This document shows, piece by piece, positions 19,366-30,302 of a stretch of 64,000 nucleotides of DNA (its first letter is position 1; each line of letters starts with the position of its first letter). Under the pieces are notes generated by a model. The model saw only the letters and a program-made list of their open reading frames with translations. It was not told the DNA's origin and did no database searches. Position numbers and translations under genes: made by a program. The DNA comes from Acidimicrobiales bacterium (GTDB lineage: Bacteria > Actinomycetota > Acidimicrobiia > Acidimicrobiales > SHLQ01): contig JAHDEJ010000002.1 of NCBI GenBank assembly GCA_020628865.1, positions 136,643 through 200,642 on the forward strand, written 5' to 3'.

Positions 19366-19443
19366 GGTGGTTGTAGCTCAGTTCGGTAGAGCACCGCGTT
19401 GTGGTCGCGGCGGTCGCGGGTTCAAATCCCGTCAGCCACCCCA
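19366..19443 (+). tRNA. tRNA-His (anticodon GUG), with encoded G-1 and CCA
   Basis: The sequence G-GTGGTTGTAGCTCAGTTCGGTAGAGCACCGCGTTGTGGTCGCGGCGGTCGCGGGTTCAAATCCCGTCAGCCAC-C-CCA folds as a cloverleaf with anticodon loop TT-GTG-GT. The extra 5' G opposite discriminator C is the His identity element. Confidence 0.92.
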
Positions 19444-19495: not shown

Positions 19496-19571
19496 GCGCC
19501 TCTAGCTCAATTGGCAGAGCATCGGACTCTTAATCCGCAGGTTCTGGGTTCAAGTCCCAGGGGGCGTACCA
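19496..19571 (+). tRNA. tRNA-Lys (anticodon CUU), CCA encoded; its 3' half is the island attachment site
   Basis: The sequence is GCGCCTCTAGCTCAATTGGCAGAGCATCGGACTCTTAATCCGCAGGTTCTGGGTTCAAGTCCCAGGGGGCGTACCA, with anticodon loop CT-CTT-AA. Position 1:72 is a G-U wobble here. Confidence 0.9.
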
Positions 19572-19625
19572 CGAAAACCCCTGATTTCTCAACGAAAGTT
19601 GAGGGTCAGGGGTTCTTTCGTTTTC
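19527..19625 (+). repeat. attL: 99-bp direct repeat covering the tRNA-Lys anticodon loop to 3' end plus the downstream terminator
   Basis: It matches 28360-28458 at 94 of 99 positions. The first 40 bp (19527-19566) are identical, and all 5 mismatches lie 3' of that. Confidence 0.85.
19576..19625 (+). terminator. Intrinsic terminator after tRNA-Lys
   Basis: AACCCCTGA (19576-19584) pairs with TCAGGGGTT (19606-19614). An inner stem CTCAAC/GTTGAG has a GAAA loop. The sequence CTTTCGTTTTC follows. Confidence 0.7.
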
Positions 19626-19640
19626 GCCAAGCAGGCTCCC

Positions 19641-19664
19641 GTGGTCACGAGGTGGTCACGGGAG
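19641..19664 (+). promoter_or_regulatory. Candidate integrase arm-type site (P' arm), tandem TGGTCACG
   Basis: GTGGTCACGAGGTGGTCACGGGAG lies 16 bp inside the island from attL. It recurs with one mismatch at 28210-28233. Confidence 0.4.
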
Positions 19665-19772
19665 TTCCGTAGGCTCTCAGGCGTTCCTGTGTCAGGCGGC
19701 ACAGCTGGGAGTGGGAATAGACCGCCGTCGATGTTGTTGCGCGGTCCGTCGAAACAACAGGGCTGTGATTAC

Positions 19773-20567
19773 ATGAATGCAATTCTTGACGGCGCACGAC
19801 AGATCAGGGTGCAGCTAGCGACTGGCTACACAGTCCTCCTCTGCGGGTGGATGACCTTGCCAGGTCTTCGCCAGATTGAGGACCCTTTCCTCGTCAGGTT
19901 GGGTGATCTGTTCTCTCAGCTCGGTCCTGCAAGCCGATCTGTCGCGCTCACCTTCCTCGCCTTGTTGATGGGAGGTGCGATCGGGCGGCTTTTTCTGGAC
20001 AGGCTTCTGGATTGGATCGAGCTTCGAATCTGTCCGAGTTGGGATGCCTTCATCCAGATGGCCGTGGATGACGTCTGCGCGCACGACTCCTTCGATATTT
20101 CCAATCAACCGAACACGCAAACCGCTACGGTCACGAAAGTCCCTTCCGGGTTTAGAACACAGGAGATGGGAATCGAAGTGGCGAATCGACGTCGTTCCCG
20201 GTCAGACGCCCGGTTCCGCGTTTCTCTTCTGATTCTCTTGGTGCCCGTGCTGCCGGTAGTGTTGTACGTCGGAGGATTCTTGTCGTCCGCCATCACGGTT
20301 GCGATTGCCCTTCTCCTGCTGGCGGATGTCTACACACTCGGCTCTCGGACAGCCCGCTACATGAACTTGCAGGAGCAAGATCGGATTCGAGAAGCGCTCA
20401 ACCGCTTGAATCGGGATATCGGCCACGCCCGGGATGACGAAAAGAAGGCGAGGATTTCCGCTAGGTGCCAGCAACTGGAAGAAGCAAAATCCTTTCTGGA
20501 GAAGCACCCTCGTGCGGTTGAAACTGGAATCACAACACCCGGTTGTGGTCATCTCCATCATCTGTAG
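19773..20567 (+). CDS. Hypothetical membrane protein (island cargo)
   Basis: The 264-aa product starts at ATG 19773 (MNAILDGARQIRV...) and has hydrophobic helices plus a charged helical C-terminus. The track ORF's upstream extension would run through attL and the terminator. Confidence 0.55.
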   Translation: MNAILDGARQIRVQLATGYTVLLCGWMTLPGLRQIEDPFLVRLGDLFSQLGPASRSVALTFLALLMGGAIGRLFLDRLLDWIELRICPSWDAFIQMAVDDVCAHDSFDISNQPNTQTATVTKVPSGFRTQEMGIEVANRRRSRSDARFRVSLLILLVPVLPVVLYVGGFLSSAITVAIALLLLADVYTLGSRTARYMNLQEQDRIREALNRLNRDIGHARDDEKKARISARCQQLEEAKSFLEKHPRAVETGITTPGCGHLHHL

Positions 20568-20581
20568 ACACGGGAGGGGCG

Positions 20582-21043
20582 ATGGATCCGGAACTCCAAG
20601 CGCTGCTGACAAGACTTGCTGAGGCGAGCGTTCGCAACTTGGCCTCGACGGTCCAAGACAAAATTCGTGCGAGCAAGGCGAAGAACAATTCGGCCGACAC
20701 AATCGCAACCCTTGAGGAGATCATCAACGAGATGCTGGCGGAGCGAGCCGAGCTGCTCCGCGTAGCTCAGGGGCTCGAGAGTGCGCTCGCAGGTCAACGC
20801 CTTTCGGAAGAGGACGTCGAGTTCGTCACGGAGCACCTCCTTCCAATCATTGCCGAGATGACGAATGGCGATGGCGTTCCGCAGTTGGAGGTGCTCCTAT
20901 CGACGGAAGCGCTGACGATCCTGCAGATCGTCGGCTTCAACTACCGCGAAGCGATTGGTAGGCCCCTAACCGAGGTCGTTTCGGCGTATGTTGCGAATCT
21001 CGCACCCGGCAACGCCAAACGGACACAGCAGAAGCGGAAGTAG
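20582..21043 (+). CDS. Hypothetical soluble alpha-helical protein (island cargo)
   Basis: The 153-aa product (MDPELQALLTRLAEASVRNL...) starts at ATG 20582, preceded by the RBS GGGAGGGG, 14 bp after the upstream stop. I recognise no family. Confidence 0.55.
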   Translation: MDPELQALLTRLAEASVRNLASTVQDKIRASKAKNNSADTIATLEEIINEMLAERAELLRVAQGLESALAGQRLSEEDVEFVTEHLLPIIAEMTNGDGVPQLEVLLSTEALTILQIVGFNYREAIGRPLTEVVSAYVANLAPGNAKRTQQKRK

Positions 21044-21055
21044 CTCGGCATCAAT

Positions 21056-22222
21056 TCACTCCAGCAACCCCGCCGCTGCTTCGGCGGCTTGGCGTTGTTG
21101 TCCGGGGAGGACGTGTCCGTAGACCTGGAGGGTGAAGGCGACGTTGGCGTGCCCGAGGCGTTCGCTGACGACTCTCGGGTTGACGCCTGCGGCGAGGAGT
21201 TGGGTGGCGTGGGTGTGTCGGAGTCCGTGGAGGGTGATGTAGGTGATCGGGAGTGTGCGGACGAAGTCCGTGAAGGTGCGGCTGATGTTGTCGGGGTGGT
21301 GGGGTTGGCCGGTGGGGCCGGTGAAGACGTAGTTGCCGGGGTGCCAGGCGTTGCCGACGAGTTCTCGTTGTTGGAACTGGTGGGTGTGGTGGTGTTTGAG
21401 GATGGTGGCGGTTTCGTCGTCGAGGTCGATGACTCGGCGGCTGCGGCGTGATTTGGGTGGGACGGTGGTGGGTTTGCCGTCGATGGTGATGAGCGTTTCG
21501 ATGACTCGGACGGTCTGGTTGATGTGATTGACGTTGTCCCACGTGAGGCCGAGGAGTTCGGCGCGGCGCATGCCGGTGAGGGCGGCGAGTCGGTAGAGGG
21601 CGAAGTGTTCGTGGGTTGCGGCGGCGTCGAGGAAGTGGCGGAGTTCGGTGGGGGTCCAGGCGGGTTTCTCGTTGTCGTCCTGGGCGGTTGAGGGTTTCTG
21701 GGCGAGTCGAGCGGGGTTGCCGATGATGAGGCCTTTGCGTTCGGCGTCGCCGAGGGCTTTACGGATGACTCGGTGGACTCGGATGACGGTGTGGGGCCCG
21801 AGGGGCCGGCCGTGCTGGCCGCCGCGTTCGGTGAGGGTTCGGTAGAGGGCTTCGAGGTGGAGGGGGCTGAGTTTCTGGAGTCGGACGTCGGTCATGTGGG
21901 GTCGGATGTAGCGGCGGATCTCGTTGCGGTAGTCCGAGAGGGTGCGCTCTTTGATGCCGGTGGCGGGGAGGGTGTCAATCCAGTGGTCGAGGTAGGTGAG
22001 GAAGGTCATGCGTTCGGCGTCGAAGTAGTCGCTGCCGGTGGCGATGGTGTTGCGGGCTTTGGCGAGGGCGTCGGCGGCGTCGGCCTGGGTGGCGAATCCT
22101 CGTTTGCGGCGTTGGCGGCGGTTGCCTTGGGCGTAGTCGGTGTGGAGATCGATGATGTATCCCCATCGGGTGTGTCCGGCCTTGGTCGTGTACTTGAAGA
22201 CTCCGGGTTGTTTGCGTGGCAT
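21056..22222 (-). CDS. int: Tyrosine recombinase / phage-type integrase
   Basis: The start MPRKQPGVFKYTTKAGHTRWGY... has a GGAGGA RBS. Catalytic signatures are present: LTGMRRAEL (Arg), HGLRHTHAT (H-x-x-R) and LQVYGHV (Tyr). Confidence 0.9.
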   Translation of the reverse strand: MPRKQPGVFKYTTKAGHTRWGYIIDLHTDYAQGNRRQRRKRGFATQADAADALAKARNTIATGSDYFDAERMTFLTYLDHWIDTLPATGIKERTLSDYRNEIRRYIRPHMTDVRLQKLSPLHLEALYRTLTERGGQHGRPLGPHTVIRVHRVIRKALGDAERKGLIIGNPARLAQKPSTAQDDNEKPAWTPTELRHFLDAAATHEHFALYRLAALTGMRRAELLGLTWDNVNHINQTVRVIETLITIDGKPTTVPPKSRRSRRVIDLDDETATILKHHHTHQFQQRELVGNAWHPGNYVFTGPTGQPHHPDNISRTFTDFVRTLPITYITLHGLRHTHATQLLAAGVNPRVVSERLGHANVAFTLQVYGHVLPGQQRQAAEAAAGLLE

Positions 22223-22400
22223 CAGGTTCCTCCGGTTCGGGGTGGGCCGTCGATGCCATGCCTGCTGCGTTCTTGACCCCGGGGCCGGCGGGGGCAAGTT
22301 GGAGCGCCCGGAGCGGAGCGAGGACGAACGAGCTTGCGGCCGTTGGTCCCGGGGTCCACACTGCGCGCCGGGATCGCCGCCCTCATTCGTTGTCGGATGC

Positions 22401-24794
22401 TCATCGTTCGATACCCATTCGGGGCTGGTGGTCGATGGCGGCGGTCTTGGCCTTCTCCGTGGCGAGGGTGCGATGGAAGTGGGCGGCTCGTTGTGCGAAC
22501 TCGAAGCGGAGTTCGTCGACGACGCTGTAGAGCCGGTTTTCGTTGCGGCCGCGGGAGAGGCCGGTGTAGGCGAGTTCTTTGTAGGTGGCGTCGTTGGCGA
22601 GCAGGAATGCGGAGTCGACGGTTATGCCTTGGGCTTTGTGGACGGTGAGGGCGTAGCCGTGTCCGAGGCGGCCGTTGGCGATGTAGTCGGCGGTGGCGAC
22701 GCGCCGGCTGCCGTCTGCGAGTCGGAGGTGAAGGTGTCCGGTCGGGGTGGCGGATTCGACAGTGGCTCGGGTGCCGTTGAGGAGGTCGTGTTTGTGGTCG
22801 TTGCGAAGCCCGATGACGTGGTCGCCCTGGTGGAAGGTGGCGTCGGGCGTTTCGACGAGCGCGGGGCCGAGTCGGTTGTGTCGGTGGAGGAGGTCTTGGG
22901 CCCGTTGGTTGAGGTCGAGGGCTTCGTGGCGGGTGGCGGTGAGCATGAGCGCGTCGTCACCTTCGAGGAAGCGTTCGCCCCAGTCGGCGACGACCTGGCT
23001 GCGCAGCGCGTCAGCGTTGTTCGAGACGATGGCGCCCCGGTGGTCGAGGAGGAAGGCGGCGTGTTCGAGCTGGTGGGTGCGGATGCTGTGGAGGATGGCG
23101 CGCTCGGTCGGGTTGGATTGCCGGCGGTTCTCTTCGAGGTGGTTGGCGGGGAGCCGGTGGGCGAGGGCGGCGAAGAGGCCGCCGGCGTCGAGTTCGGGGA
23201 GTTGGTGGGGGTCGCCGACGAGGATGAGCTTGCCTCCCGATTCGTGGGCTCGGCTGATGAGTTCGGCGAGTTGGCGGGTGCCGACCATGGCAGCTTCGTC
23301 GATGACGGTCACCGCATTGGGGCGCGGTTTCTGTTCGAGGAGCCGGTGGATGGTCGTGGAGTGGATGCCGCTCGAGTTCTGGAGATTCCTTGCGGCCGTG
23401 GCCGACAGGGCGGCGCCCTGGATGCGTTGGCCGACCGGGAGGCTCTCCCGGATGGCGTCGAGGGCGAAGGTCTTACCGCTACCGGGCGCGCCGATGACGA
23501 TGTCGACCGTGTTCCCGTCGGTGAGGATGCTGCGGACCATCGAAGCTTGTTCGGCGGACAGGCTCGGGCGCTCAGCGATGACGTCGTCGGCGGTTCGAGC
23601 TTCGAGCCGGGCGCTCAGCTCGTGGGTCTTCTTGCGGGCACCGATGCCAGCGACCACGATGTCGACGCTGCGCTGTTCGAGTTCGAGGATCTCCGGGGTC
23701 GTGTAAGTGCGGTCGGCGAGCTGGATGGCGTGTTCGCTGGACAGAAAGCCGGCGGCGGTGGCCATGATCTGGTCGAGCGTTGCCCCGTCGGTGGCTGCGT
23801 GGGCTGCCGCTGCAATGACGTGGCGCCGTTCGAACGTCGATGTCTGTTCGGTGACCGAGACGGCGAGCTGTTCGTTGGTGGGTGCGTAGTGGGGCTGGCG
23901 AGTGACCGTCGGGACGGTGTCGAGGGTGAAGCCGAGTTCGTCGAAGCGTTCGGCCCAGCGGGCTCGCTGGTCCCACGTTTCGACCTCGTCGCCTTTGGCG
24001 GTGCGTGTGGCGAGGGTGGAGACCTGCGCAGCGCGGCTGGTGACCGTGCCGCGCTTGGCCATGTCGCGGGTGATCGCGTGGCGGCGTTGGCTGAACTCGG
24101 CCCGGATCGTCTTGTCGATGCCAACGATTTCTGAGGTGCCGTGGTTGTCGGGCTCGGTGAAGAGCACGCCGAGCCGAGTGGCGAGCTCGTGGCGCAGGAC
24201 CGCTTGGTAGACGGCGTCGGCGGCATAGCGATTGGCGTAGAGCTGTCGGGTGTCGAGGCCAGTAGTGCGGCCGTCGGGGCCGGTCGAGGCGTTGATGATC
24301 AGGTTGTGGTTGTGGAACTGCGGGTCGGCATCATCTGATCGGCTGGTCGTGTGCGTGAACGTCACCACCGCAAGCCCACTGCCAGGGTGGTGGTCGACGC
24401 CGCCTCGCCCACGCCGTACGCCACAGGCCTCGGCTCCGAGGAAGGCGAGCATCGCCGAGTTCGCCGACTCCAGTGCTTCCAGCGCCTCGGCGCGCCGGTG
24501 GCCGGTAGCGGCGGCTTCGAACACCGACACCGACTTCGGTGGACTCGAGGTGACATCGAAGAACGCCCGCTGAACCGCGGTAGCCGTCAACCGATCTCCG
24601 GAGGCTGGGTGACGGCCGGAAAGCAGCGCTTCGGCGTCGCCGCGCTCGAGCGGGCCGGCGAGGCCGAGCTCAGCGGCCAGCGCGCCGGAGGCAATGCCGT
24701 TGTGTTGCTCGTCGACGTAGTAGCCGAGCGGGGTCGGGCCGGTCGGCTCGTTGAGGTAGTAGCCGAGGTCCTGGGGCTTGCCGATCGAAATCAC
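22401..24794 (-). CDS. MobF-family conjugative relaxase (TrwC/TraA-like relaxase domain plus RecD-like helicase/ATPase)
   Basis: The N-terminus ISIGKPQDLGYYL...LGYYVDE holds catalytic Tyr pairs. The His triad is HTTSRSDDADPQFHNHNLI and Walker A is VIGAPGSGKT. The start codon is GTG. Confidence 0.88.
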   Translation of the reverse strand: MISIGKPQDLGYYLNEPTGPTPLGYYVDEQHNGIASGALAAELGLAGPLERGDAEALLSGRHPASGDRLTATAVQRAFFDVTSSPPKSVSVFEAAATGHRRAEALEALESANSAMLAFLGAEACGVRRGRGGVDHHPGSGLAVVTFTHTTSRSDDADPQFHNHNLIINASTGPDGRTTGLDTRQLYANRYAADAVYQAVLRHELATRLGVLFTEPDNHGTSEIVGIDKTIRAEFSQRRHAITRDMAKRGTVTSRAAQVSTLATRTAKGDEVETWDQRARWAERFDELGFTLDTVPTVTRQPHYAPTNEQLAVSVTEQTSTFERRHVIAAAAHAATDGATLDQIMATAAGFLSSEHAIQLADRTYTTPEILELEQRSVDIVVAGIGARKKTHELSARLEARTADDVIAERPSLSAEQASMVRSILTDGNTVDIVIGAPGSGKTFALDAIRESLPVGQRIQGAALSATAARNLQNSSGIHSTTIHRLLEQKPRPNAVTVIDEAAMVGTRQLAELISRAHESGGKLILVGDPHQLPELDAGGLFAALAHRLPANHLEENRRQSNPTERAILHSIRTHQLEHAAFLLDHRGAIVSNNADALRSQVVADWGERFLEGDDALMLTATRHEALDLNQRAQDLLHRHNRLGPALVETPDATFHQGDHVIGLRNDHKHDLLNGTRATVESATPTGHLHLRLADGSRRVATADYIANGRLGHGYALTVHKAQGITVDSAFLLANDATYKELAYTGLSRGRNENRLYSVVDELRFEFAQRAAHFHRTLATEKAKTAAIDHQPRMGIER

Positions 24795-24936
24795 CGGACC
24801 GCTCCCCCAGCTCTGGCGTGTGGGGTTGGGTTAGCGGCGACCTCACTCGCACCGATGGTGCATTGGTGTGAATGACCATCAGACCTGCGTGAGCACAGGC
24901 ATGAGGTCAAAGTCGTGAGGTCGGCCGTGAGGCCGA

Positions 24937-25158
24937 TCAACGCTCCGAATCGGATGGCAGATCGAGCTGCGTCATCCGCTCGAGTACAGCCAGCGGGACG
25001 CGCAGCGACCCACCGATCTTGATGTTCGGCAACCCCGCCTGCCCGCCGCTGTCCCGATACTGCTTCGCCGCCTCATACGCCGCATTGCGGGAAATCCGCA
25101 GCCGTTCCCCAGCCTCCGGGATCGTCAGAAACTGGTCGTCATCAATCGTGACCGCCAT
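24937..25158 (-). CDS. xis: Excisionase-family helix-turn-helix DNA-binding protein
   Basis: The 73-aa product contains FLTIPEAGERLRISRNAAYEAAK...IKIGGSLRVP, an HTH_17/excisionase-like pattern. The RBS is GAGGAGG, and the gene sits next to the relaxase and integrase. Confidence 0.7.
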   Translation of the reverse strand: MAVTIDDDQFLTIPEAGERLRISRNAAYEAAKQYRDSGGQAGLPNIKIGGSLRVPLAVLERMTQLDLPSDSER

Positions 25159-25351
25159 CGGTCCTCCTCAATCGTGGTCTTCCGCCACGAGTGGAGAAGC
25201 AGAGATTGCGACGTCGGCGCATGCCCTGACCCTGATCCACTGCAAGTGGTGTGTTGGTGTCGGCGCAAGTACGCACAAGCGCGTCGGCTCAGCTTGCGCA
25301 GCGAGGATCACCTGAGCGAGCCAGTGACGGCGATGCGGCTACCGTTGGCGC

Positions 25352-26026
25352 ATGACGCAATGGCGGCGGCAGGCACACGTCGAGCAGGCGCTTCAGGTGG
25401 CTCGATCCGGCGAGGTACCGACTCAGCCGCTTCGCTTGAGTCGACGGAACCGCTCGATCGTCCTGGACGCCGACTTCCTGGATGACCGGATCGCAACCGT
25501 GTGGATCGTGCGCCGTGGACAGATCGGTGAGCCCACCGACGTGTATGTGCGCCTCGGGCAAGAAGGTGGTCAATGGGCTGTTCTCGGTGGTGGGAGCAGC
25601 AGTCCAGGGCAAGACCTCGACTGGCGTCCAAGTCTTGCTGAGGCGGAAGCCATGCAACGGGGGCGAGCTCAGTGGAAGAGCTGTCCGTTCGGTGTCGTCG
25701 GAGGCGGATCGCAAGGGACTCTCAGTTGCGAGGCCAACACCATCTACTTGACGTTGGCAAGCGAGGTGGCAGAGCTTCGGTTCTCCGATCGCGATCCGAA
25801 GAGGGCGCCGCATCACGGCCGAATCGTGTTCCTTAGCTACGGAAACCGTGAGCCGGAGATGACAGCGTTCGACGCCGAGGGCACGAGCCTCGGGACCTAC
25901 AAGCCAAGCGAGTACTGGAAGGATTCGCCTCCACGCTTCGGGCCGCATCGATGGTGGTGGATACGACGCCGTGGGCGTCGAGGCTGGTTCACCTACGGAG
26001 CGAGAGCCCGGCTTCAAGAGGACTAG
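25352..26026 (+). CDS. Hypothetical protein (island cargo)
   Basis: The plus-strand 224-aa ORF has balanced composition and G/C-rich third positions. The overlapping minus ORF 25289..26047 is Ser/Pro/Arg-rich. The RBS is weak. Confidence 0.4.
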   Translation: MTQWRRQAHVEQALQVARSGEVPTQPLRLSRRNRSIVLDADFLDDRIATVWIVRRGQIGEPTDVYVRLGQEGGQWAVLGGGSSSPGQDLDWRPSLAEAEAMQRGRAQWKSCPFGVVGGGSQGTLSCEANTIYLTLASEVAELRFSDRDPKRAPHHGRIVFLSYGNREPEMTAFDAEGTSLGTYKPSEYWKDSPPRFGPHRWWWIRRRGRRGWFTYGARARLQED

Positions 26027-26118
26027 ATTTTCTGACGACTTCCACAACGCTGACGACCGGTCGAATCCGTTGCGTTTATTTCGTTTAGGTCGTACGGTTG
26101 GATGCCGAAGGAGGAGTC

Positions 26119-26544
26119 ATGGAAACAACTGTCGAGCCTGGCTCGTTGGATCAATCTGATATCGACAAGCTGATCGCGGGTCTCGACGCCGTAGGCGAAA
26201 CGCCGCGGCTGGTCGGACCCGACGGGGCTTCGGTTGAGCTGCCTGTCGAGATCCATGGGGTACTGCTTCGAGTCGTTGAAGAACTCCGTGCTGGAAACGG
26301 AATCTCCGTTGTTCCGGTCGAGACGGTGTTGACGACTGCGCAGGCAGCAGAGCTGCTCAACGTCAGTCGCCCGCACCTGGTCAAGCTTCTCGAGCAAGGA
26401 GCTCTGCCGCACCACATGGCGGGGTCCCACCGCCGGATCAAGTTCGGTGACCTGATGGCCTTCCGCGACCAACGGGTGCAGGAGCGGGAAGACGCTCTCG
26501 CGAAGATGCACGCGATTGCTGATGAATCGGGGATGGACCTGTAG
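26119..26544 (+). CDS. Excisionase-type HTH antitoxin
   Basis: ATG 26119 follows a strong RBS, AAGGAGGAG. The HTH is LTTAQAAELLNVSRPHLVKLLEQGALPH...RRIKFGDL. A PIN gene lies 11 bp downstream. Confidence 0.7.
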   Translation: METTVEPGSLDQSDIDKLIAGLDAVGETPRLVGPDGASVELPVEIHGVLLRVVEELRAGNGISVVPVETVLTTAQAAELLNVSRPHLVKLLEQGALPHHMAGSHRRIKFGDLMAFRDQRVQEREDALAKMHAIADESGMDL

Positions 26545-26555
26545 GTTCGGCGCAC

Positions 26556-27122
26556 GTGGCGGTCTTTCCAGTCATCCTCGACGCGAACGTCCTCTTCGGC
26601 ATCTTCCCAACCGACCTGCTCATCACGCTCGCCGGGCGACGCCTGTACCGTGCGCACTGGACAGAGGAAATCCTCGAAGAGGCACGACGGAACGTGATTG
26701 CCGAAAGGCCCGACCTTGATCCATCGGCTGTCAAGCGCCGTTTCGAGGCGATGAAGGCAGCGATGCCCGAAGCAATGCTCGACCCACCTCCACGCAACAT
26801 CGTTGCGTCGATGCCGAACGATGAGGGTGACCGACATGTGCTCGCCGCGGCCGTCATGGCTCGGGCTGAGGTCATTGTCACGGAAAACATCAGCGACTTC
26901 TCGCCGCAGGCGTGCAGCCCCTTCGGCGTTGAGGCTCAGACACTCGATCAGTTTCTCGGCTTCCTCGTCTCGCTCGATTCGGCTGAGGTGTGGAGCGCCA
27001 TCGAAGAGATGTCCCGACGTCGAACGAGGCCGCCAATGGCCCTTGACGACGTTGTTGCAACGCTCGAGCGGTATGCGCCGGCTGCGATGGGGCAGCTTCA
27101 AGAGACCCAGCGCATCTTGTGA
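26556..27122 (+). CDS. PIN-domain toxin (PIN_3-like)
   Basis: The translation VILDANVLFG...DEGDRHVLAAAVMARAEVIVTENISDF carries the acidic PIN residues. The start codon is GTG. Confidence 0.7.
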   Translation: MAVFPVILDANVLFGIFPTDLLITLAGRRLYRAHWTEEILEEARRNVIAERPDLDPSAVKRRFEAMKAAMPEAMLDPPPRNIVASMPNDEGDRHVLAAAVMARAEVIVTENISDFSPQACSPFGVEAQTLDQFLGFLVSLDSAEVWSAIEEMSRRRTRPPMALDDVVATLERYAPAAMGQLQETQRIL

Positions 27123-28162
27123 AGGGAATGCTGTCTATGTTGGAAATTCGAGGTCTGGCGGCAGCGGTGCTGCTTGCTGTCTTCATGAGCGGATGTGGTG
27201 GATCAACAACGGCCGATGAGTTGGTGACGCCAACGACCCAGCCACCCGAGCAGGGCGCTGGCGCCTCACCCGAGCCCACGACGACCTTCACCTCAAGCGT
27301 TGCGCCTGCGGAGACGACGACCACGACCACACAACCCGCCGTCGCGACAACCGCTGCAGTCACCACCACGTCCCTGAAGCTCGATGAGCTGCCAGTTCCT
27401 GGTGATGCGATCGAGCAGCTCGCAGGTCTCGTTGACGCCACGCTCGCCGTCCAGCGGCGATCGTTCAGTCTTACGTCGACGCGGATCGTCGACGCGGGTG
27501 AGACAGAGACGGTCATGGTCCGGAATGGGGCCTTCGACGCCGAGACGCAGACAGGTGAGGGAACCCTGTTCAACGTCGCTGATGGAGAAGCCTCGATGGT
27601 CGAAACCCGCCTTCTCCTCGGACAGGAGCACTGGTTCGGCAACGGTTCGTCGAACCCAGTTCAGTGGACCGGCATGAGCCTCAACGACGCACTCCAGCTC
27701 GCCAGTCACGACCTGATTGGCGAAATGACGGGAGACGTGTATCTGCAGGCCATTCGGACTGCGACGACCGCCGTCGAACGGATTGGTGTTGCCGCCGACG
27801 GGTCGGAACGCTGGTTCGTGTCCGTTGAGGCGGATCGAATGATCGACGTATTCGCTGCAAGCGACTTCTTCGCGACCTCTCTTCGGGCCAGAGGGGCCGA
27901 TGACACAGGCGTTACGCTGCTGCTTACCGTGGGAGTTGAACGGGGTCGGATCAAGTCGATCAGCGGTGACTTCAGCCCGTGGTGGTCCGAGGCATACGCA
28001 AAGCTCGTCGCCGGAAGCCTGTCGGCCACCTCCGACGGAAGCGAGCAGGGCTATCTCGAGCTGGCCTTTTCAGCTATCGACGGCCCAGTCCTCGTGAATC
28101 GACCGTGCAACGATCCTGTTGGTAGCACGGCGAACGACTCGATCAGCGTTCTGATCTGTTGA
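27119..28162 (+). CDS. Secreted lipoprotein, unknown function (island cargo)
   Basis: The signal peptide has the lipobox LAVFMSGC and is followed by a Thr/Pro-rich linker. The start overlaps the PIN stop as GTGA; ATG 27128 and 27137 are alternatives. Confidence 0.6.
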   Translation: MKGMLSMLEIRGLAAAVLLAVFMSGCGGSTTADELVTPTTQPPEQGAGASPEPTTTFTSSVAPAETTTTTTQPAVATTAAVTTTSLKLDELPVPGDAIEQLAGLVDATLAVQRRSFSLTSTRIVDAGETETVMVRNGAFDAETQTGEGTLFNVADGEASMVETRLLLGQEHWFGNGSSNPVQWTGMSLNDALQLASHDLIGEMTGDVYLQAIRTATTAVERIGVAADGSERWFVSVEADRMIDVFAASDFFATSLRARGADDTGVTLLLTVGVERGRIKSISGDFSPWWSEAYAKLVAGSLSATSDGSEQGYLELAFSAIDGPVLVNRPCNDPVGSTANDSISVLIC

Positions 28163-28209
28163 GCCACCCGCTGAAGTGCGCTTGAGGAACAACGCGAGGC
28201 GTGAGGCTC

Positions 28210-28233
28210 GTGGTCACGAGATGGTCACGGGAG
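28210..28233 (+). promoter_or_regulatory. Candidate integrase arm-type site (P arm)
   Basis: GTGGTCACGAGATGGTCACGGGAG lies 127 bp inside the island from attR, in the same orientation as 19641-19664. Confidence 0.4.
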
Positions 28234-28359
28234 ATCCGTGATTCGCCGAAACTAGCGGCAATCGGACGTGACGATCCGGTACAGGAAATCCGCCCTGGGG
28301 GTTGATAATTCAATGATTTTCGGGACCCGACAGGACCAGCCGGGATGGCGAGGCCGTCG

Positions 28360-28458
28360 CTCTTAATCCGCAGGTTCTGGGTTCAAGTCCCAGGGGGCGC
28401 ACCACGAAAACCCCTGATTTCTAAGCGAAGGTTGAGGGTCGGGGGTTCTTTCGTTTTC
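28360..28458 (+). repeat. attR: duplicated 3' part of tRNA-Lys plus terminator
   Basis: It matches 19527-19625 at 94 of 99 positions. There is no 5' acceptor or D-arm upstream, so it is a fragment rather than a tRNA gene. This copy carries C at the position that would restore a G1:C72 pair. Confidence 0.85.
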
Positions 28459-28559
28459 CCGGCAGGCGGCCAGAATCCAACGTGATTCCTAAAGCGGTGC
28501 TCAACTGGTGCGGGAAGCGCAACAGGAACCAGATGGAATCCACCAACGTAGAACCATTC

Positions 28560-29150
28560 ATGAATCAGCTCAGCCGGCTTCGTCTTCTGTCGCTCGCCGT
28601 GGTGGTGGGGCTTGCCGGCTGCGGCGGGACGACATCAGAGGCCGATACAGGCGAATCCGGCCCCGCCGACGATCCCGTAGTCCAAGCCGAAACGGACGCG
28701 TCAGATGTGCTGGACATGGAGGATGTCGACCCGTTCGGCCGCCTGAGGGTCTTCATGATTGAGAACGCGCCGAGCAGCTCGCTCTTTGACAGCATCGACT
28801 TGGTTCCCGCGCTCGACAACGGCCGACGCATCCTCGTCTCCGTCTTTTAGCAGCCTGACGGCTCCGATGCCTACGTTCTGAGCTTCCTCTACAAGCCGAG
28901 TTGCTCGCACATTCCAGGAGTACTCACGCCCGCTGGCAGCAACAGCTTCGTTTGGACCGAGGGAAGGCCAGAGGCCGGCGGAATCGAGCATGAATCGATC
29001 CACTGCCCTCCCGACTGGCAGTTCGAACCAACGCTTGACGGTCGCCCGACCGAGCTTGAAATCTCGGTTGACGAGTATGAGGCCGATGCGCTCACCTTGA
29101 CGATCGACGGTTCAACCGAACGATGGACGATCACGACTGACGGCGGCTAG
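28560..29150 (+). pseudogene. Lipoprotein gene interrupted by an in-frame TAG at 28848-28850
   Basis: The translation MNQLSRLRLLSLAVVVGLAGCGG...RILVSVF-TAG-QPDGSDAYVLSFLYKPSCSHIPGVL...TERWTITTDGG-TAG is in one frame (coordinates = 0 mod 3). The 99 codons after the TAG are open and protein-like but have no start codon of their own. Confidence 0.55.
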
Positions 29151-29231
29151 CTCATCCCGAAGCCTCGATCATGCAGGTCGTCGCTACGACGCGGTTCTGC
29201 AGTCATCACCACAAGGCTCTGACCGGGACGC

Positions 29232-30302
29232 TCACCCGAGGAGTTCGGTGACGAACGTCCGCATGGCCGCTGAGGCTTCGTCGGGGACTTCGAGCTGGAA
29301 GAAGTGGTTGCCGTCGAGGAATTGGACCCGGCCGTCGGTGACGAAGTCGGGCGTGTTCTCGTACTCCTCAACGTGCTGGCCGGGATCGAGCCGCCCCTGC
29401 AAGAACAGCACCGGCATCGTCATCTTCGCAAACAGCGTGTCGTGACGGTCGGCCAACTCTTGCTCGAGGCTCGTGTGGTCGAACTGTCGGGGTGACGCCT
29501 CGGCCACACCGTTGAACTTCACCTCGTGGTCCAGGCGGTCGAGCACCTCCTTGCTGATGCCCTCCACCCGGTAGCCGCCGGCCGCATAGGAAACCCGGGG
29601 AAAGCCGGTCCACTTCATCAGCTTCGAGAACCACGGCTGAGCGAAGATCTCGTGTGGCGGCTTCGGGTCGCCGTGGGGCTCGTTGGCCGACTGCTGCATA
29701 CGCACGTAGCGCAGCACCCGCTCCTCCATCCCGTCGACGTTCAGCAGGTGGTCGGAGATGACGGAGCCTCGGTCGTGCCCGCCAAGGTTGAACCGGTCCA
29801 CGCCGATGGTGTCCAGCAGCGCTCCGAGTGACTCGGCGATGGCCGAGTAGCGGTAGTCGAGGTCGAGTCGCTTGTCGCTCTGGCCGTTGCCAAGTGTGTC
29901 CACGGCGATGCAGTAGAACTCGTCGGCCAGATCGCGCATTTGGTTGTGGAACGTGAACCAGCTCTCCGGGAACCCGTGCACCAGCACGAACGGCTCGTTG
30001 CTCGGGTCGCCGGTCGTGACGAAGTGCCAGGTGACGCCGTCGGCGTCGGCATACCAGTGCGTCGCTTCGACATCGCCGATCATCTCGATCTCGCCGTGGG
30101 CATTCTCTGCGCCGATCGGATACTCGGCCGGCTGCGGATACCGGAGGTTGTCGGCGATCGGGGCCGTGCCCGGCACTCCCCCTTCACGAACGTTCGTCAG
30201 CGTGAGATCCTCCTTCGACAGGTACTCGAGCCGCGGGAGGGTCTGCGGCGAGAGCATCTTGATCAGCTTGACGATCTCTTTGGCGTCGGTCGGATTCGGC
30301 AT
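29232..30302 (-). CDS. Alpha/beta hydrolase (epoxide hydrolase / haloalkane dehalogenase-like)
   Basis: The translation carries PFVLVHGFPESWFTFHNQ and the nucleophile-elbow region LGGHDRGS. The start MPNPTDAKE has an AAGGAG RBS. Confidence 0.8.
   Translation of the reverse strand: MPNPTDAKEIVKLIKMLSPQTLPRLEYLSKEDLTLTNVREGGVPGTAPIADNLRYPQPAEYPIGAENAHGEIEMIGDVEATHWYADADGVTWHFVTTGDPSNEPFVLVHGFPESWFTFHNQMRDLADEFYCIAVDTLGNGQSDKRLDLDYRYSAIAESLGALLDTIGVDRFNLGGHDRGSVISDHLLNVDGMEERVLRYVRMQQSANEPHGDPKPPHEIFAQPWFSKLMKWTGFPRVSYAAGGYRVEGISKEVLDRLDHEVKFNGVAEASPRQFDHTSLEQELADRHDTLFAKMTMPVLFLQGRLDPGQHVEEYENTPDFVTDGRVQFLDGNHFFQLEVPDEASAAMRTFVTELLG

Follow-up and report, generated by a model that had tools for sequence, protein, structure and literature searches.

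A probable MobF-type integrative mobilizable element in the tRNA-Lys(CUU) gene of a marine Acidimicrobiales bacterium

Identification of the element

The stretch analyzed here, in the following called the window, comprises 64 kb of DNA from a marine, alga-associated Acidimicrobiales bacterium. The region 19527-28458 is very probably a canonical integrative mobilizable element (IME) that has inserted into the tRNA-Lys(CUU) gene, with the polarity, the decay of one repeat copy, and the transfer scheme that are proposed below. All coordinates of this island refer to the window and to its plus strand. The island encodes its own recombinase and its own relaxase, it is bounded by att repeats, one of which completes the target gene, and scans of its open reading frames (ORFs) revealed no families of coupling proteins or pores. 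According to a preliminary description, the 3' half of tRNA-Lys(CUU) is occupied by an integrative element, and the repeats, the ARAGORN prediction, and the families of the integrase and the relaxase bear this out.

Two kinds of sequences were used for comparison, i.e., Acidimicrobiales contigs and loci of metagenome-assembled genomes (MAGs), designated L, and public metagenome runs (Logan contigs), designated X. X1-X3 are the three runs of the source sample, a 2021 alga metagenome, and their contigs were built with k=31.

The target gene and the direct repeats

ARAGORN predicted a tRNA-Lys(CTT) gene at 19496-19571, with a tRNA-His gene as neighbour (19367-19443). A repeat search revealed two direct repeats of 99 nt, 19527-19625 and 28360-28458, which are identical at 94 of the 99 positions and have a spacing of 8833. 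The repeat begins with the first base of the anticodon loop (tRNA position 32) and extends through the CCA end and a hairpin of 54 nt. The attL copy completes tRNA-Lys(CUU). The repeat unit has a length of 8,833 bp and the unique DNA of 8,734 bp. The five mismatches are at repeat positions 41, 64, 66, 71, and 82, and the first 40 bp are identical. The repeat search and the reading of both copies confirmed the 94 of 99 identities and the identical first 40 bp of the preliminary description, as well as its statement that the expressed gene has a G1-U72 pair and the attR copy a C at position 72. The features are:

19496..19571, plus strand: tRNA-Lys(CUU), the integration target, with G1-U72 (ARAGORN); the 5' 31 nt are chromosomal, and position 32 onward lies inside the attL repeat
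19527..19625, plus strand: attL repeat copy, from the anticodon loop to CCA and on through a perfect terminator hairpin of 54 nt (-28.1 kcal/mol)
28360..28458, plus strand: attR repeat copy, a promoterless 3' tRNA fragment and a weakened hairpin (-21.1 kcal/mol), with four private substitutions
19567/28400: mismatch at repeat position 41, equal to tRNA position 72; T in attL, C in attR
19590/28423: mismatch at repeat position 64; C in attL, A in attR
19592/28425: mismatch at repeat position 66; A in attL, G in attR
19597/28430: mismatch at repeat position 71; A in attL, G in attR
19608/28441: mismatch at repeat position 82; A in attL, G in attR

When up to three mismatches were allowed, a core 27-mer was found at exactly two sites in the 64 kb, versus none expected from 100 shuffles. 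A third, decayed att copy further to the right, which would indicate a tandem array in the window, was ruled out, as blastn-short did not yield a third copy.

Genes for integration and transfer

Three genes on the minus strand form the core module of the island:

21056..22297, minus strand: tyrosine integrase (Pfam Arm-DNA-bind_4, SAM-like, and catalytic domains; PHROG 1 integrase, 6e-73), probable start Met at 22222
22401..24794, minus strand: MobF (TrwC-type) relaxase fused to an SF1B helicase (Pfam TrwC, 2.6e-61, and AAA_30)
24937..25158, minus strand: 73-aa HTH_17 protein (Pfam HTH_17, 3.3e-5, only 24.5 bits against a gathering score of 27)

The integrase contains the domains Phage_integrase, SAM_3, and Arm-DNA-bind_4 (PF14657, 3.8e-9), and the residues R, K, HxxR, H, and Y could all be read. 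The relaxase matched the NCBIfam MobF model NF041492 with 177.7 bits (cut-off 100) and also contains AAA_30 and UvrD_C_2. Its tyrosine pairs (LGYY...LGYY), the motif with three His (H-x10-DPQFHNH), and the Walker A/B motifs are present. Position, conservation, and family make the 73-aa helix-turn-helix (HTH) protein a candidate excisionase (Xis), i.e., a recombination directionality factor (RDF), or a candidate relaxosome accessory protein. Together with a toxin-antitoxin-like pair and hypothetical genes, these are the contents that had been listed in the preliminary description, and the scans with Pfam and NCBIfam recovered them, with putative roles for the HTH protein and the pair.

No coupling protein or pore component (VirD4, VirB4, FtsK, TcpA) was found in Pfam, NCBIfam, and PHROG scans of the ORFs of at least 50 aa that were judged to be coding, four of which have no family. 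Likewise, profile scans of all island ORFs did not reveal Rep, FtsK/SpoIIIE-type Tra translocase, capsid, portal, or terminase families. These results bear on the question whether the island could instead be self-transmissible, i.e., an integrative and conjugative element (ICE) or its actinomycete form (AICE), or else a prophage or a satellite. The actinobacterial host and the presence of a relaxase would fit an ICE or AICE, but no ORF belongs to an FtsK/TraB translocase, Rep, VirD4, VirB4, capsid, portal, or terminase family, and the size of the element is only 8.8 kb. In particular, the combination of an FtsK/SpoIIIE-type Tra with Rep, by which an AICE is recognized, is missing from every ORF. 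We therefore regard this alternative as hardly credible.

Arm sites and integration

Tandem motifs were found on both sides of the island, close to the repeats:

19640..19670, plus strand: P' arm, candidate arm-type integrase sites; tandem GTGGTCACG GAG GTGGTCACG, then GTTCCGT; 11 family members share the motif without variation and at an equal distance from the core
28209..28239, plus strand: P arm; tandem GTGGTCACG AG ATGGTCACG, then GATCCGT; oriented like the P' arm and without variation in seven attR sides of family members

Alignments of the family yielded the arm motif CGTGGTCAC-nn-GGTGGTCAC, followed by TCCG, and thus tandem TGGTCAC sites on either side of the core. On the tRNA side, they lie about 115 nt past the start of the core, and on the far side about 150 nt ahead of it. 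The presence of arm motifs on both sides fits the integrase because it contains an arm-binding domain. This domain (PF14657) and the invariant arm repeats on both sides would place the integrase among the heterobivalent (lambda-type) systems. The integrase would bridge the TGGTCAC arms, about 150 bp to the left and about 115 bp to the right in attP, and the core at the anticodon loop.

Polarity of the repeats

The preliminary description had used the five mismatches between attL and attR to place the crossover in the first 40 bp. This does not follow, because, irrespective of the crossover point, every difference between attP and attB reappears as one between attL and attR. The identity of the first 40 bp cannot serve as evidence for the crossover either, as the same 40 bases are present in nearly all sampled Acidimicrobiales tRNA-Lys(CUU) genes. 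In addition, five random mismatches in 99 bp would all miss the first 40 with a probability of about 7%, and thus the asymmetry alone is not significant.

Related elements gave a clearer picture. In L135, the copy on the tRNA side and the middle copy end with ...GCGCACTC, without CCA, and the last copy, which abuts host DNA, ends with ...GCGCACCACG. In the MAG ABC1.26, the tRNA-side copy L140 ends with ...GCGTACAGCAAG and runs directly into the P' arm. This copy closely matches the tRNA-side copies of L136 and L141, the hosts of which have unrelated upstream sequences. On the L140 contig, 18.2 kb away, the copy L065 is preceded by the P arm, ends with ...GCGTACCACAATCG, and has a different hairpin. 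In both cases, L135 and L140/L065, the copies are alike for only 43 bp; attL is of the CCA-less element type, and attR has the CCA end of the host type. Therefore, the exchange in this family lies in the first 43 bp.

For the window copy itself, the states at 19567, 19590, 19592, 19597, and 19608 (attL numbering) were compared with those of metagenome contigs, derived by comparing how many letters of a given contig differ from attL and how many from attR:

Window attL, linked to the P' arm (element side): T, C, A, A, A
X10 contig of 709 nt (about 97% identity across 19542-20221), on the element side, linked to the P' arm and the first cargo gene: T, C, A, A, A
X4/X5 contigs, linked to a homologue of the right flank of the window: T, C, G, A, A
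X29 contig (757 nt), linked to a homologue of the right flank of the window (28/30 bases past the repeat): T, C, G, A, A
Window attR, linked to the right flank: C, A, G, G, G

The X10 host differs from the host of the window, as the tRNA-His/tRNA-Lys spacers of the two are separated by 12 base differences and 3 indels. A single site, 19592/28425, splits the copies into an element type (A) and a host type (G). The comparison of the copies thus supports the view that the distal part of attL derives from the element and the distal part of attR from the chromosome. The direction that had been proposed in the preliminary description stands, on the grounds of the family copies and this site, but the argument that had led to it does not.

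The second part of that proposal, that the distal part of attR is ancestral, is contradicted by the other four sites. Neither the flank-linked copies of two relatives nor the element-linked copy has the attR states at these sites. These states change one base pair to A-G and two pairs to wobble pairs, alter the GAAA loop, and shift the hairpin from -28.1 to -21.1 kcal/mol, a loss of 7 kcal/mol. Because they are private to attR and weaken its hairpin, the four differences look like decay. Probably, attP and attB differed at one base of 99 when the integration happened (19592 A versus 28425 G), and the simplest reading is that the remaining four mismatches, C72 among them, were acquired by the unexpressed attR copy after the integration.

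Two alternatives have to be weighed. If the preliminary description held in full, all five mismatches would be original differences between attP and attB, and the element would have replaced a native C72 (G1:C72) and a weaker hairpin by U72 and a better hairpin. The location of the crossover in the family, at the 5' end of the repeat, the occurrence of C72 in 22 of 93 species, and the density of four differences in 59 bp (7%), which is near the divergence of the flanks from those of the nearest relatives (6% in coding regions and higher in the intergenic right flank), are in line with it. On the other hand, the hairpins of X4/X5 and X29 are identical to each other, indicating that the functional copy is constrained; these copies carry T72, C, A, and A where the attR of the window has C, A, G, and G; and the private changes break a pair, create two wobbles, and alter the GAAA loop. 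We consider this version unlikely, though not far-fetched. The reverse polarity, with a crossover at the 3' end of the repeat, a chromosomal distal attL, and an element-derived distal attR, is much less probable still. Four of the five attL sites do match the flank-linked copies of the relatives, but the same four also match the element-linked X10 copy, the discriminating site 19592 opposes it, and in L135 and L140/L065 the tRNA-side copy is clearly of the element type and contiguous with the P' arm.

According to the preferred polarity, strand exchange would occur within the first 43 bp of the repeat and, in the window copy, to the left of repeat position 66. An exchange in the first 43 bp has the consequence that the element supplies the tRNA 3' end: it would give attL the 3' 45 nt of the tRNA and the terminator, and the displaced chromosomal 3' end would remain as a dead copy at attR.

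Position 72 and the CCA end

The G1-U72 wobble had been regarded as an oddity connected with the element, and this could not be upheld. Full-length tRNA-Lys(CUU) genes that match a T-arm and acceptor pattern came from 93 species, 71 with T72 and 22 with C72. Enough downstream sequence was available for 82 species, and in only 2 of these is the arm of this family next to the gene. The remaining 80 species comprise 62 with T72 and 18 with C72, and the nearest relatives also have G1-U72. As T72 is in the majority in the 93 species as well as in the 80 arm-free species, G1-U72 is the usual native state in this lineage, and the element does not impose it as a cost.

A variation was also observed at the CCA end. 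In L135, L136, L140, and L141, the tRNA-Lys 3' end supplied by the element has no encoded CCA (...GCGTACAGC / ...GCGCACTC), and the displaced host copy has CCA. Therefore, integration of these elements makes the tRNA depend on the CCA-adding enzyme.

A tentative and rather doubtful extension would be that this IME family rewrites the 3' end of tRNA-Lys(CUU) with each landing (position 72, the CCA in L135/L136/L140/L141, and the terminator), and that occasional RecA-type excision across the long repeat returns host sequence to attP. If this were true, the traffic of elements, and not point mutation, would drive much of the acceptor-stem and CCA polymorphism of tRNA-Lys(CUU) in Acidimicrobiales, and it would be explained why the repeats comprise 99 bp in some family members and 43 bp in others.

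A candidate oriT and the proposed transfer

Between the genes for the HTH protein (xis) and the relaxase, a single non-coding block turned out to be conserved when six elements were aligned:

24849..24880, plus strand: oriT candidate; GCACC-GAT-GGTGC hairpin, then ATTGGTGTGAATG

In the family alignment, the proximal hairpin arm and the bases after it are its most conserved part. The block resembles the IR2/nic region of plasmid R388 and is a candidate oriT only. The full 25-mer of R388 has the arms GCACC/GGTGC, identical to those of the window, and in the window as in R388 the hairpin is followed by ATTG.... Differences are the length of the loop (3 nt versus 4 in R388), the single-stranded part (ATTGGTGTG versus GTATTGTCT), and the location, since the block of the window lies between the accessory gene and the relaxase gene, unlike in R388. 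The nic site of R388 comprises a hairpin, with arms of 5 bases and the loop GAAA, and after it a single-stranded stretch that reaches to the cut and contains GGTGCGTATTGTCT (PMC4176350). The proximal arm and the following bases were found to be essential in R388 (PMC4176350).

Three direct copies of (A/G)TGAGG(T/C)C are present at 24899-24935, between the oriT candidate and the xis stop codon. This triple GTGAGG repeat was rejected as an oriT because, unlike the hairpin block, it is not conserved in the family alignment.

The following scheme of transfer is proposed. The conserved 73-aa HTH protein would act as excisionase, as relaxosome accessory factor, or as both. The MobF relaxase would nick the circle at GCACC-GAT-GGTGC / ATTGGTGTG, between xis and the relaxase gene. 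As no gene for a coupling protein or a pore was found in the island, the circle would then use the mating pore of a separate conjugative element for its export. The HTH/PIN gene pair in the right part of the island would serve as an addiction module.

Evidence for movement

The identities of element modules were compared with those of contigs matching the host flanks in the same runs:

X10: element modules 91-99% identical; host-flank-matching contigs 82-86%
X30: element modules 92-97% identical; host-flank-matching contigs 84-87%
X29: putative toxin-antitoxin module 98.7% identical; host-flank-matching contigs 85-89%

In addition, the X4/X5 relative, which is about 94% identical on the left flank, contains none of the element. 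X29 seems to hold a tandem array with a second, unrelated element. Taken together, these comparisons indirectly favour a recent movement of the element.

Alternatively, the island could be a fixed remnant that is no longer mobile and is inherited only vertically. In favour of this, element and flanks have about the same depth in X1-X3, attR has collected four substitutions, and there is no junction evidence for mobility, the k=31 contigs being unable to span the 40-bp core. However, the frames of int, relaxase, and xis are intact and the catalytic residues are present, the arms on both sides and the first 40 bp of each core are undamaged, modules with 95-99% identity occur in runs in which host-flank-matching contigs reach 89% at most, and the nearest relative (X4/X5) lacks the element. 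A remnant is thus rather improbable.

Several points weigh against the interpretation as an IME with the proposed polarity, decay, and transfer scheme. The polarity in the window copy is read from one site in five copies, X4 and X5 are possibly one data set, and the metagenome contigs were assigned to one organism by depth only. The four private changes of attR could be lineage-specific changes of the native gene that predate the integration. Neither an excised circle nor an empty site was seen in the source runs, the contigs of which cannot span the identical core. The depth ratios of element to flank are 0.8-1.1, which is too noisy to reveal a minority empty site, and they indicate that most or all cells carry the element. 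Lastly, the roles of oriT, Xis, and the toxin-antitoxin pair are deduced from position, conservation, and family.

Contigs of deviating depth or structure were also observed. In X1-X3, the contig depth of 19641-25179 (cargo, int, relaxase) is about 20-25% lower than that of 25150-27070 and of the flanks, which could reflect a composition bias or a heterogeneity of the population. A minor contig of X1-X3 has a depth of about 13, while that of the main strain is about 330. It combines short segments from the tRNA end, the left junction of attR, and the 29152 region, with joints from 19569 to 28341 and from 28396 to 29152, and may originate from another strain or from a related element of this sample. 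In X10, a 433-nt contig with a depth of 22 has a joint from 19569 to 24847, which appears to bring a tRNA-Lys 3' end to within about 70 nt of the oriT/xis block, and the int and relaxase pieces have depths of 3-7. This contig may represent a derivative without integrase and relaxase that has kept the oriT candidate, xis, and the putative toxin-antitoxin pair.

A family of related elements in Acidimicrobiales

Relatives of the integrase with 59-66% identity were found beside tRNA-Lys(CUU) in at least 8 Acidimicrobiales MAGs, with the 3' end of int toward the tRNA. The order xis-relaxase-int on one strand recurs in L135-L138, L140, and L176, and the remaining genes do not recur. The 73-aa HTH protein, encoded upstream of the relaxase, is conserved in the same loci with 58-69% identity. 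L135, L138, and L141 show both att copies, at a distance of 11.2 kb in L138 and of 12.25 kb in L141. The island is thus a member of an IME family with a xis-relaxase-integrase module, invariant arm sites, and an R388-like hairpin as oriT candidate.

The slot between int and attL varies in length from 0.15 to 3.2 kb across the family and would be its cargo slot. In relatives, it contains insertion sequences (IS), a TIR-like effector, or an NsnA/GmrSD-like defence gene. The latter is located at 12052-13128 of L138 (PADLOC, 228 bits), and at 11667-18416 of L135 two copies of an IS transposase flank the gene for the TIR-like effector.

The tRNA gene is also used by other elements. A scan of the collection yielded 25 promoterless tRNA-Lys(CUU) 3' fragments (L017-L134), all of which start at CTCTTAA, with at least 5 unrelated left junctions, and several of the contigs carry two or three fragments. 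From these sequences, the anticodon loop of tRNA-Lys(CUU) appears to be a general hot spot that is targeted by several integrase families in Acidimicrobiales.

Relation to known systems

The integrative elements pSAM2, SLP1, and pMEA300 share with the island an att identity from the anticodon loop to past the tRNA 3' end, an arm-binding integrase, and arm repeats on both sides. They are AICEs with FtsK-like Tra and Rep, families that are not represented in the element of the window. The relaxase resembles TrwC of R388 in having two tyrosine pairs, a motif with three His, and a C-terminal helicase.

Canonical IMEs in tRNA genes are known, e.g., NBU1 in tRNA-Leu and IME_Sag2603_tRNAlys (PMC5704250). 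Like the island, canonical IMEs have a single tyrosine integrase, use the 3' part of a tRNA gene that is restored by the repeat, encode their own relaxase without coupling protein or pore, carry a toxin-antitoxin pair (putative here) and a few unassigned cargo genes, and have a size of about 9 kb (PMC5704250). The island differs in its MobF relaxase, its Acidimicrobiales host, and its long att repeat of 99 bp, which includes the tRNA terminator. A review from 2017 knew of a single IME in Actinobacteria and of no canonical IME whose relaxase belongs to the MobF class (PMC5704250). Meanwhile, IMEs of the traACD type that carry MOBF relaxases and lie next to tRNA genes have been catalogued in Mesorhizobium, and in some of them the relaxase operon includes an RDF gene, suggesting that excision and transfer are coupled (PMC8627217). 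The island shares with them the chromosomal location, the MOBF relaxase, and the adjoining tRNA genes. In contrast, its xis, relaxase, and int genes are arranged in this order on one strand, TraC/TraD homologues are missing, and phylum and site are different; its relaxase best matches the TrwC/TraA_Ti domain models, without the synteny of traACD.

The element is thus an IME of an already known kind and a new family member in a poorly studied order, and it does not change any open biological question. Its value lies in a cleanly delimited MobF-type mobilizable island, and a family of these, in Acidimicrobiales, an uncultured marine and soil order with barely described mobile elements. The att core, the arm sites, and the oriT candidate are now defined and open to in vitro work. 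With respect to methods, mismatches between attL and attR alone reveal neither the place of strand exchange nor the ancestral copy, and attB or attP sequences from outside are required. In addition, a dead attR copy is liable to decay.

Cargo genes and flanking regions

The remaining genes of the island are:

19773..20567, plus strand: cargo ORF, 264 aa, predicted membrane protein, no family, in the low-GC (56-57%) slot
20582..21043, plus strand: cargo ORF, about 153 aa, no family, convergent with int
25352..26026, plus strand: ORF, 224 aa, no family in Pfam and NCBIfam scans
26098..26544, plus strand: HTH_17/excisionase-family DNA-binding protein, putative antitoxin (Pfam 2.8e-12; TIGR01764 54.4 bits, cut-off 28.8), probable start 26119
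26556..27122, plus strand: PIN_3 protein, putative toxin (Pfam PIN_3 34.7 bits, cut-off 27)
27119..28162, plus strand: predicted lipoprotein, 347 aa, no family, with signal peptide and lipobox ...FMSGC; overlaps the PIN stop codon

The HTH and PIN genes are 11 bp apart, and HTH_17/TIGR01764 and PIN_3 each score above their own cut-offs. The PIN protein also matched the NCBIfam RSP_2648-family PIN model with 91.5 bits, which is below the equivalog cut-off of 170. As judged from position, conservation, and family, 26098-26544 and 26556-27122 form a putative HTH/PIN toxin-antitoxin pair. For the four unassigned cargo ORFs, no family was found in Pfam, NCBIfam, PHROGs, or PADLOC scans. The G+C content is a mosaic of 56-57% in the attL-int slot, 64-68% in int and relaxase, and 59-63% further to the right. 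In the X10 relative, 25197-26067 is replaced by 35 nt (joint 25196 to 26068), and this region is thus dispensable cargo. The X10 relative also lacks the ORF for the 347-aa lipoprotein, and everything to the left of 28211 is missing in X10.

To the left of the island, a GGDEF-EAL protein is encoded that has a relative with 71% aa identity in an Acidimicrobiales MAG (L001). L001 was considered as a source of attB, but the contig breaks 19 nt into the core and no attB was gained. Exact-pattern scans of the genome and metagenome contig collections with the tRNA end plus the hairpin of the window yielded no match.

To the right, attR is followed by a 708-nt stretch of lower GC content (28459-29165) that extends to a hydrolase gene. 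The X5 relative has 308 nt instead, and of 28459-29264 only the first ~50 nt and 29166-29264 are common to both. The hydrolase, an alpha/beta hydrolase (29232-30302, minus strand), was useless as a synteny marker, because its relatives are spread over several phyla and never lie next to tRNA-Lys. Relatives with 75-88% aa identity occur in MAGs of Actinomycetota, Chloroflexota, Bacteroidota, Myxococcota, and Spirochaetales, many of them from one sample series, and an exact protein match was found only in the source sample. This distribution points to a recent transfer across phyla or to mis-binning.

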